Assembly: GCF_016026235.1 (NCBI RefSeq)
Contig: NZ_CP065613.1
Strand: one strand, 5' to 3'
Origin: Escherichia coli
Lineage (GTDB): Bacteria; Pseudomonadota; Gammaproteobacteria; Enterobacterales; Enterobacteriaceae
Length of the DNA stretch: 64,000 nucleotides
Shown here piece after piece: positions 35,728-38,700 of the stretch. A program made the translations under genes and the position numbers. The notes beneath the pieces were generated by a model. That model had not been told where the DNA came from. It saw only the letters and a list, made by a program, of their open reading frames with translations, and did no database searches. The number at the start of each line of letters is the position of its first letter. Position 1 is the stretch's first letter.

Positions 35728-38700
35728 ATGGACGTCAGTCGCAGACAATTTTTTAAAATCTGCGCGGGCGGTATGGCTGGAACAACAGTAGCGGCATTGG
35801 GCTTTGCCCCGAAGCAAGCACTGGCTCAGGCGCGAAACTACAAATTATTACGCGCTAAAGAGATCCGTAACACCTGCACATACTGTTCCGTAGGTTGCGG
35901 GCTATTGATGTATAGCCTGGGTGATGGCGCAAAAAACGCCAGAGAAGCGATTTATCACATTGAAGGTGACCCAGATCATCCGGTAAGCCGTGGTGCGCTG
36001 TGCCCGAAAGGGGCCGGTTTGCTGGATTACGTCAACAGTGAAAACCGTCTGCGCTACCCGGAATATCGTGCGCCAGGTTCTGACAAATGGCAGCGCATTA
36101 GCTGGGAAGAAGCATTCTCCCGTATTGCGAAGCTGATGAAAGCTGACCGTGACGCTAACTTTATTGAAAAGAACGAGCAGGGTGTAACGGTAAACCGTTG
36201 GCTTTCTACCGGTATGCTGTGTGCCTCCGGTGCCAGCAACGAAACCGGGATGCTGACCCAGAAATTTGCCCGCTCCCTCGGGATGCTGGCGGTAGACAAC
36301 CAGGCGCGCGTCTGACACGGACCAACGGTAGCAAGTCTTGCTCCAACATTTGGTCGCGGTGCGATGACCAACCACTGGGTGGATATCAAAAACGCTAACG
36401 TCGTGATGGTGATGGGCGGTAACGCTGCTGAAGCGCATCCCGTCGGTTTCCGCTGGGCGATGGAAGCGAAAAACAACAACGATGCAACCTTGATCGTTGT
36501 CGATCCCCGTTTTACGCGTACCGCTTCTGTAGCGGATATTTACGCACCTATTCGTTCCGGTACGGACATTACGTTCCTGTCTGGCGTTTTGCGCTACCTG
36601 ATCGAAAACAACAAAATCAACGCCGAATACGTTAAGCATTACACCAACGCCAGCTTGCTGGTGCGTGATGATTTTGCTTTCGAAGACGGCCTGTTCAGCG
36701 GTTATGACGCTGAAAAACGCCAGTACGATAAATCGTCCTGGAACTATCAGTTCGATGAAAACGGCTATGCGAAACGCGATGAAACACTGACTCATCCGCG
36801 CTGTGTGTGGAACCTGCTGAAAGAGCACGTTTCCCGTTACTCGCCGGACGTAGTAGAAAACATCTGCGGTACGCCAAAAGCCGACTTCCTGAAAGTGTGT
36901 GAAGTGCTGGCCTCCACCAGCGCGCCGGATCGCACAACTACCTTCCTGTACGCGCTGGGCTGGACGCAGCACACCGTCGGTGCGCAGAACATCCGTACTA
37001 TGGCGATGATCCAGTTGCTGCTCGGTAACATGGGTATGGCCGGTGGCGGCGTGAACGCATTGCGTGGTCACTCCAACATTCAGGGTCTGACTGACTTAGG
37101 CCTGCTCTCTACCAGCCTGCCTGGTTATCTGACGCTGCCGTCAGAAAAACAGGTTGATTTGCAGTCGTATCTGGAAGCGAACACGCCGAAAGCGACACTG
37201 GCTGGTCAGGTGAACTACTGGAGCAACTATCCGAAGTTCTTCGTTAGCCTGATGAAATCTTTCTATGGCGATGCCGCGCAGAAAGAGAACAACTGGGGCT
37301 ATGACTGGCTGCCGAAGTGGGACCAGACTTACGACGTCATCAAGTATTTCAACATGATGGACGAAGGCAAGGTTACCGGTTATTTCTGCCAGGGCTTTAA
37401 CCCGGTTGCGTCCTTCCCGGACAAAAACAAAGTGGTGAGCTGCCTGAGCAAGCTGAAGTACATGGTGGTTATCGATCCGCTGGTGACTGAAACCTCAACC
37501 TTCTGGCAAAACCACGGCGAGTCGAACGATGTCGATCCGGCGTCTATTCAGACTGAAGTATTCCGTCTGCCTTCGACCTGCTTTGCTGAAGAAGATGGTT
37601 CTATCGCTAACTCCGGTCGCTGGCTGCAGTGGCACTGGAAAGGTCAGGATGCGCCGGGCGAAGCGCGTAACGACGGTGAAATTCTGGCGGGTATCTACCA
37701 TCACCTGCGCGAGCTGTACCAGGCCGAAGGTGGTAAAGGCGTAGAACCACTGATGAAGATGAGCTGGAACTACAAGCAGCCGCACGAACCGCAATCTGAC
37801 GAAGTGGCAAAAGAGAACAACGGCTATGCGCTGGAAGATCTCTATGATGCTAATGGCGTGCTGATTGCGAAGAAAGGTCAGTTGCTGAGTAGCTTTGCGC
37901 ATCTGCGTGATGACGGTACAACCGCATCTTCTTGCTGGATCTACACCGGTAGCTGGACAGAGCAGGGCAACCAGATGGCTAACCGCGATAACTCCGACCC
38001 GTCCGGTCTGGGGAATACGCTGGGATGGGCCTGGGCGTGGCCGCTCAACCGTCGCGTGCTGTACAACCGTGCTTCGGCGGATATCAACGGTAAACCGTGG
38101 GATCCGAAACGGATGCTGATCCAGTGGAACGGCAGCAAGTGGACGGGTAACGATATTCCTGACTTCGGCAATGCCGCACCGGGTACGCCAACCGGGCCGT
38201 TTATCATGCAGCCGGAAGGGATGGGACGCCTGTTTGCCATCAACAAAATGGCGGAAGGTCCGTTCCCGGAACACTACGAGCCGATTGAAACGCCGCTGGG
38301 CACTAACCCGCTGCATCCGAACGTGGTGTCTAACCCGGTTGTTCGTCTGTATGAACAAGACGCGCTGCGGATGGGTAAAAAAGAGCAGTTCCCGTATGTG
38401 GGTACGACCTATCGTCTGACCGAGCACTTCCACACCTGGACCAAGCACGCATTGCTCAACGCAATTGCTCAGCCGGAACAGTTTGTGGAAATCAGCGAAA
38501 CGCTGGCGGCGGCGAAAGGCATTAATAATGGCGATCGTGTCACTGTCTCCAGCAAGCGTGGATTTATCCGCGCGGTGGCTGTGGTAACGCGTCGTCTGAA
38601 ACCGCTGAATGTAAATGGTCAGCAGGTTGAAACGGTGGGTATTCCAATCCACTGGGGCTTTGAGGGTGTCGCGCGTAAAGGTTATATCGCTAACACTCTG

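Follow-up and report, generated by a model that had tools for sequence, protein, structure and literature searches.

In bacterial selenocysteine (Sec) decoding, selenophosphate is the product of SelD, Ser-tRNA(Sec) is converted to Sec-tRNA(Sec) by SelA, and SelB-GTP binds both Sec-tRNA(Sec) and the apical loop of the SECIS element. The reference bacterial SECIS is that of fdhF, which encodes formate dehydrogenase-H, a cytoplasmic enzyme of 715 residues with Sec at codon 140. Its SelB determinants are a bulged U17 and the loop nucleotides G23 and U24, within an apical stem-loop approximately 11 nt from the UGA (reviewed in PMC8659212). For fdnG, which encodes the alpha subunit of formate dehydrogenase-N, two papers from 1991 (Berg, Li, Heider, and Stewart, J Biol Chem 266:22380; Berg, Baron, and Stewart, 266:22386; both cited in PMC13188914) provided the evidence that the UGA codon specifies selenocysteine, for which a stem-loop in the mRNA is required. 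The FdhA family TIGR01553, to which UHxP is assigned as the Sec motif, is listed as an experimentally verified selenoprotein family (PMC13188914).

We analyzed a 64-kb stretch of DNA (the window) from an E. coli-lineage genome, in which a TGA lies within the fdnG reading frame. Here, fdnG is considered intact because this TGA is the known Sec codon and is followed by the known recoding hairpin; UGA196 is almost certainly recoded to selenocysteine through this 3' SECIS element. The locus is compared below with fdnG (b1474) and fdoG of E. coli K-12 and with fdhF.

Results

The gene for the catalytic (molybdopterin) alpha subunit of formate dehydrogenase-N, fdnG, occupies positions 35728 to 38775 of the window and, like every feature located below, lies on the plus strand. 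A mechanical ORF list presented the gene as two ORFs in the same frame, 35728-36315 (195 aa) and 36364-38775 (803 aa). The preliminary description had regarded these as one continuous frame split at the TGA at 36313-36315, and this was confirmed: translation of 35728-38775 in a single frame gave 1016 codons, with the only internal stop at codon 196 and the terminal stop at codon 1016, for a product of 1015 residues when UGA196 is read through. With X at residue 196, the product aligned from residues 1 to 1015 with residues 1 to 1015 of PDB 1kqf_A (2396 bits), the solved E. coli FdnG, which bears the title "formate dehydrogenase, nitrate-inducible, major subunit." Four substitutions (L342F, T372S, D493G, and S666A) separate the two proteins. 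Residues 2 to 1014 also matched positions 1 to 1009 of NCBIfam profile TIGR01553 (formate dehydrogenase-N alpha), at 1620.3 bits versus a cutoff of 814.2.

The Tat signal peptide coding region spans 35728-35826; it contains RRQFFK at residues 5 to 10, its sequence is the same as in the 1kqf precursor, and residues 1 to 33 presumably constitute the Tat signal, ending at residue 33. The N-terminal 4Fe-4S cysteine motif, C50-x2-C53-x3-C57, is, like RRQFFK, the same in 1kqf_A. Both the Tat signal and the 4Fe-4S motif would be expected to function in this FdnG. Given what is known of the family, the FdnG of this strain is probably enzymatically active, in nitrate-inducible, selenium-dependent formate oxidation.

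Downstream of fdnG, the genes for the other two subunits are intact and of K-12 length. fdnH (38788-39672), encoding the iron-sulfur beta subunit, matched TIGR01582 at 482 bits and has one synonymous difference from K-12; fdnI (39665-40318), encoding the cytochrome b gamma subunit, has nine synonymous differences and matched the FDH-N gamma equivalog NF007558 at 487 bits, a higher score than the 268 bits obtained with the FDH-O gamma model. Of 5426 complete E. coli genomes, 5425 contained the fdnG region by megablast. The closest complete genome was that of FDAARGOS_943, which matched an fdnG-fdnH query at 99.9% and to which the window is not identical. By RefSeq annotation, the fdnG orthologue in FDAARGOS_943 and in K-12 is one non-pseudogene CDS of 3048 nt.

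On the E. coli map, the window as a whole falls at paa-hrpA-aldA-cybB and narZ'-narU-yddK-fdnGHI-adhP-maeA-...-gadBC-pqqL-yddAB. IS-mediated decay is evident near fdnG, in the form of a truncated narZ and a deletion of ddp-dos. A leucine-rich repeat (LRR) protein encoded at 32711-34042 was considered as a Shigella ipaH product; this assignment was rejected, as the exact protein is widespread (4697 blocks) and is found in a yddK-type context by fdnG (six assemblies listed).

The UGA codon lies at 36313-36315, within GTC TGA CAC (36310-36318). K-12 fdnG and fdoG both carry UGA at the same codon, 196. The surrounding protein context, RV-U-HGP (codons 194 to 199), fits U-H-x-P, and the codon aligned with the non-standard residue 196 of 1kqf_A, in agreement with the earlier proposal that this TGA occupies the conserved Sec position of formate dehydrogenase-N. 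We take Sec196 to be a ligand of the molybdenum in the bis-MGD cofactor (1kqf structure).

The sequence past the UGA was then compared with that of K-12. Over these 819 codons, 36 differed synonymously and 4 non-synonymously, corresponding to a dN/dS of 0.031 (Nei-Gojobori), and no further stop or frameshift was present. The low dN/dS together with the open frame indicates a translated, constrained sequence, as opposed to DNA situated beyond a genuine stop. This pattern of substitution upholds the initial view of the stop as a recoded codon and not a lesion.

A SECIS element had been predicted immediately after the UGA, and the Rfam covariance models located one there. Model RF01989 (SECIS_3) matched at 36310-36368 over its full length (positions 1 to 59 of 59), with a score of 84.3 bits versus a gathering score of 63 (E = 1.3e-19). 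This was one of two matches at gathering level in the whole 64-kb window. The SECIS_2 model, to which the fdhF element belongs, scored only 28.8 bits here, versus a gathering score of 70. All 59 nucleotides of the element are the same in K-12 fdnG, K-12 fdoG, and FDAARGOS_943. By virtue of this identity with the K-12 element, the SECIS would be expected to bind SelB and to steer Sec insertion.

In the minimum free energy (MFE) fold, the hairpin begins directly 3' of the in-frame UGA and covers approximately 36316-36361, within the same ORF; three more pairs may extend it to 36365. The apical hairpin, GGUAGCA-AGUCU-UGCUCC (36327-36344), is the putative SelB-binding part, by likeness to the fdhF SECIS. 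It starts 11 nt past the UGA. With the U of the UGA counted as position 1, the bulged U17 falls at 36329, and loop nucleotides G23 and U24 fall at 36335 and 36336. K-12 fdhF, folded in the same way, likewise has UGA-CAC GG..., an apical hairpin from nt 15, a bulged U17, and a loop G23-U24, but it differs in its lower-stem sequence and its Rfam family. Both loops are small in the dot-bracket folds, GUC in fdnG and GGUC in fdhF; the fdnG loop becomes the 5-nt AGUCU if the closing A-U pair is open. The fdnG hairpin was reportedly described by Huttenhofer et al. in 1996.

The lower stem (36318-36358) surrounds the apical hairpin and an internal loop (36345-36349, in the MFE register), with 36318-36325 paired to 36350-36358 and G36356 bulged. 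While the element as a whole matches SECIS_3 above the gathering score, its lower stem in the MFE fold pairs one position away from the Rfam consensus register: the MFE pairs C14 with G43 and A9 with U42 and leaves G44 bulged.

Folding of 36316-36360 had been put forward as a check on recoding, with the lack of a foldable hairpin, together with a lack of sel genes, counting against it. The hairpin did form, but its energy did not discriminate it from shuffled sequence. The MFE of segment 36313-36360 was −13.8 kcal/mol, at a z score of −1.44; folds as good as this one were obtained from 21 of 200 shuffles. Relative to shuffles, the z scores were −0.22 for the 69-mer, −0.24 for the 151-nt context, and −0.69 for the 3' part left when the ribosome masks the remainder. 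Only the 19-nt apical hairpin stood out on its own, and weakly (z = −2.43; 6 of 200 shuffles). A foldable hairpin by itself is thus a weak guide in either direction. Because the folding energy is unexceptional, the case for the hairpin rests on the covariance-model match, on covariation, and on the freezing of synonymous sites.

To examine covariation, the genome_contigs collection was scanned once with GTNTGACAYGGNCCNACNGT, which stands for V-U-H-G-P-T-V with third positions free, and at least 120 matches were obtained. An FdnG-type protein context was present in 116 of the 119 matches with readable flanks among those listed. The listed matches yielded an alignment of 76 distinct 69-nt sequences, the window included. 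Across these 76 sequences from the matches listed, the apical helix, formed by columns 18-25 and 29-35, was 95.9% paired, and compensatory changes occurred in four of its seven pairs. For example, among the same listed matches, the A-U pair 36330/36342 is replaced by G-C or C-G, and the A-U pair 36333/36339 is replaced by C-G or G-C. When the entire structure was scored on the listed matches, 89% of cells could pair, versus 27 to 49% when the 3' partners were slid by 1 to 3 columns. RNAalifold, given the 76 listed sequences and no prior structure, returned the same 5-bp apical stem. U24, a third codon position, was invariant in all 76 sequences among the matches listed, and 90% or more of them retained G23. 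The lower stem was less well supported than the apical helix, being paired in 80 to 84% of cells among the listed matches, with at most one compensatory pair. K-12 fdoG was dropped as an independent sequence in this analysis; because it is identical over 71 nt, it adds nothing to the covariation.

The freezing of synonymous sites was seen within the Enterobacterales. In 29 enterobacterial fdnG/fdoG loci (from genera including Citrobacter, Photorhabdus, Providencia, Yersinia, Enterobacter, Klebsiella, and Superficieibacter, plus E. albertii), 98% of the codons for conserved residues were identical within a 69-nt block at 36310-36378 (codons 195 to 217), versus 41 to 69% in the flanking 69-nt blocks. 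The edges of this nearly completely frozen block are sharp: identical codons numbered 9 of 26 at codon 194 and 3 of 26 at codon 218. In E. coli, the block was found at 99% identity or greater in 5432 of 5433 matching records.

The block comprises the SECIS and approximately 17 nt on its 3' side. This tail, up to 36378 (GCG AUG ACC AAC CAC UGG), lies beyond the hairpin and varies freely in Pseudomonas, Burkholderia, and other clades. That the functional RNA element of enterobacterial fdnG/fdoG is larger than the described SECIS hairpin is a tentative and rather unlikely suggestion. In that case, the tail might supply an additional determinant confined to this clade, such as a sequence with which the 3' strand of the lower stem re-pairs when the 5' strand is melted by the ribosome, or one that sets the spacing of, or makes contact with, the SelB-ribosome complex. 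The extra conservation may also have some other cause. An alternative 3' hairpin (36350-36358 with 36362-36371) was present in the MFE fold once the 5' strand was removed. As a general feature this hairpin was rejected for want of covariation, with 74.0% paired versus 74.2% in shuffles; the rejection applies outside the Enterobacterales, within which this stretch does not vary.

Next, the genes required for Sec decoding were considered. Neither sel genes nor tRNA genes were found in the 64-kb window. In K-12, the distance from fdnG is approximately 0.3 Mb for selD and more than 2 Mb for selAB and selC. With presence defined as a match over at least 80% of the K-12 query, selA-selB and selD were each found in 5425, and selC in 5424, of the 5426 complete genomes of E. 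coli. In FDAARGOS_943, the genome of which is rearranged relative to that of K-12, selA (3854792-3856183), selB (3856180-3858024), selD (953337-954380), and the tRNA-Sec gene (3764180-3764274; anticodon tca according to ARAGORN) are annotated as intact and have K-12 lengths.

These data bear on the possibility that the codon and the SECIS are intact but a recent lesion in selA, selB, selC, or selD has ended Sec decoding, so that fdnG is silent and has not yet decayed. The sel genes lie outside the window, the lineage is IS rich and decaying, and in FDAARGOS_943 IS1 copies and pseudogenes adjoin selB and selC. On the other hand, the near-universal presence of every sel gene (5424 to 5425 of 5426 complete E. 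coli genomes), the four sel genes annotated as intact in FDAARGOS_943, and the unrelaxed constraint on fdnGHI all argue against such a loss, which we judge to be very improbable.

Still less probable, to the point of being negligible, is that the TGA is a real premature stop and that fdnG is split or dead, yielding a 195-residue fragment like the decayed genes nearby. The mechanical ORF call does cut the gene in two, the window contains IS-associated truncations and deletions, and FDAARGOS_943 has many pseudogenes. Against this stand the TGA shared with both K-12 genes at this codon, the same protein context in nearly all readable matches from other bacteria (the 116 of 119 among those listed), the alignment with a non-standard residue of a solved protein, the high-scoring SECIS next to the codon, and the constrained, uninterrupted 819 codons downstream with their dN/dS of 0.031.

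Low-level readthrough of UGA by tRNA-Trp occurs in E. coli. That UGA196 is read by such a near-cognate tRNA, or by insertion of Cys, instead of as selenocysteine is scarcely credible, given the dedicated SECIS that follows the codon with its conserved SelB determinants and covariation, the non-standard residue in the homologous crystal structure, and the membership of FdnG in a family of experimentally verified selenoproteins (PMC13188914).

Discussion

The Sec196 codon and SECIS of fdnG described here are the K-12 system itself, with an identical recoding element that is already known. The gene has the same length as K-12 fdnG and the same two stop positions (codons 196 and 1016), the 69-nt block is identical, and the fdnGHI order and the flanking yddG and yddM are shared. 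Relative to K-12 fdnG, 38 codons differ synonymously and 4 non-synonymously (L342F, T372S, D493G, and S666A), all of them outside codons 190 to 220, and four substitutions lie within the 228 nt that precede the start codon. The paralogue fdoG (formate dehydrogenase-O), at another locus in K-12, is identical over 71 nt (window positions 36310-36380) and also has Sec at codon 196, whereas the flanking 69-nt blocks share only 47 to 63 of 69 nt.

With UGA196 read as selenocysteine, the mRNA 3' of the UGA would fold into the SECIS, and the apical hairpin would display the bulged U and the loop G-U. SelB-GTP carrying Sec-tRNA(Sec) would dock on this hairpin and, competing with RF2, bring the tRNA to UGA196 in the ribosomal A site. 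The expected outcome would be the full 1015-residue selenoprotein. What is known of the family suggests that selenium is indeed incorporated in this strain.

Current understanding of selenocysteine recoding is unchanged by these results; codon, hairpin, and enzyme alike have counted as textbook cases since 1991. The main value of the analysis lies in annotation. Simple ORF calling, or a tally of pseudogenes, would wrongly place fdnG among the disrupted genes of a genome that is decaying and resembles E. coli/Shigella. When the UGA is taken as Sec, the operon for the respiratory formate dehydrogenase-N is retained as intact in the inventory of genes.

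Conserved sequence and flanks of fdnG

In Enterobacterales fdnG and fdoG, the freezing of synonymous sites runs approximately 17 nt 3' beyond the SECIS hairpin (36362-36378 in the window, the final part of the conserved block at 36310-36378) and ends sharply at codon 217/218. The third positions of this tail are variable in Pseudomonas, Burkholderia, and other clades. No covariation was found for a candidate alternative hairpin involving the tail.

Compared with K-12, the fdnG regulatory region, taken as the 228 nt before the start codon, carries four substitutions, at 35533, 35615, and 35640-35641. 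Just 3' of fdnI, at 40392-40509, sub-threshold matches to naRNA4 (RF02564) and ES036 are clustered on both strands; these look like extragenic palindromes of the REP/BIME type.

Comparison of the window with its closest complete relative

The window was compared with FDAARGOS_943, the closest complete genome. Two sites that hold an IS1A copy in FDAARGOS_943 are empty in the window, one between yddK and yddL (34045-34053) and the other between maeA and sra (43928-43936), and the BLAST pieces at both overlap by 9 bp, matching IS1 target duplications. These empty sites indicate that the window comes from a genome related to FDAARGOS_943 but from a different strain. Two genes annotated as frameshifted in FDAARGOS_943, maeA (42121-43845, minus strand; 574 amino acids) and pqqL (53232-56027, minus strand; 931 amino acids), appear uninterrupted in the window. 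By this comparison, pseudogenes are less numerous in the window than in its nearest complete relative.

Gene loss in the window was observed at two places relative to FDAARGOS_943. At a deletion junction near 47166, a truncated ddpD is fused to a truncated dosC, with loss of ddpC, ddpB, ddpA, ddpX, and dosP. Within 28323-30920, only approximately the first 1.3 kb of narZ is present, bordered by a copy of the IS4-like element ISEc60 (ORF 28349-29650, minus strand), and the remainder of narZ, together with narH, narW, and narI, is missing. On the other side, cybB/rydC passes directly into the ISEc60 copy; the RydC sRNA there (27861-27924, minus strand; Rfam RF00505, 92.5 bits versus a gathering score of 48) adjoins a cybB-like ORF at 27284-27850.

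Context of the sel genes

In FDAARGOS_943 (NZ_CP065615.1), the genes for tRNA-Sec, SelA, and SelB are intact, and disruptions affect their immediate neighbours, as seen in the regions 3758022-3770987 and 3858214-3859378. Among these neighbours, yicJ contains an internal stop, an IS66 element interrupts yicI, an IS5 element interrupts setC, and an IS1 copy cuts yiaY. The survival of an intact tRNA-Sec gene, selA, and selB amid disrupted neighbours is consistent with selection preserving selenocysteine decoding in the otherwise decaying FDAARGOS_943 genome.
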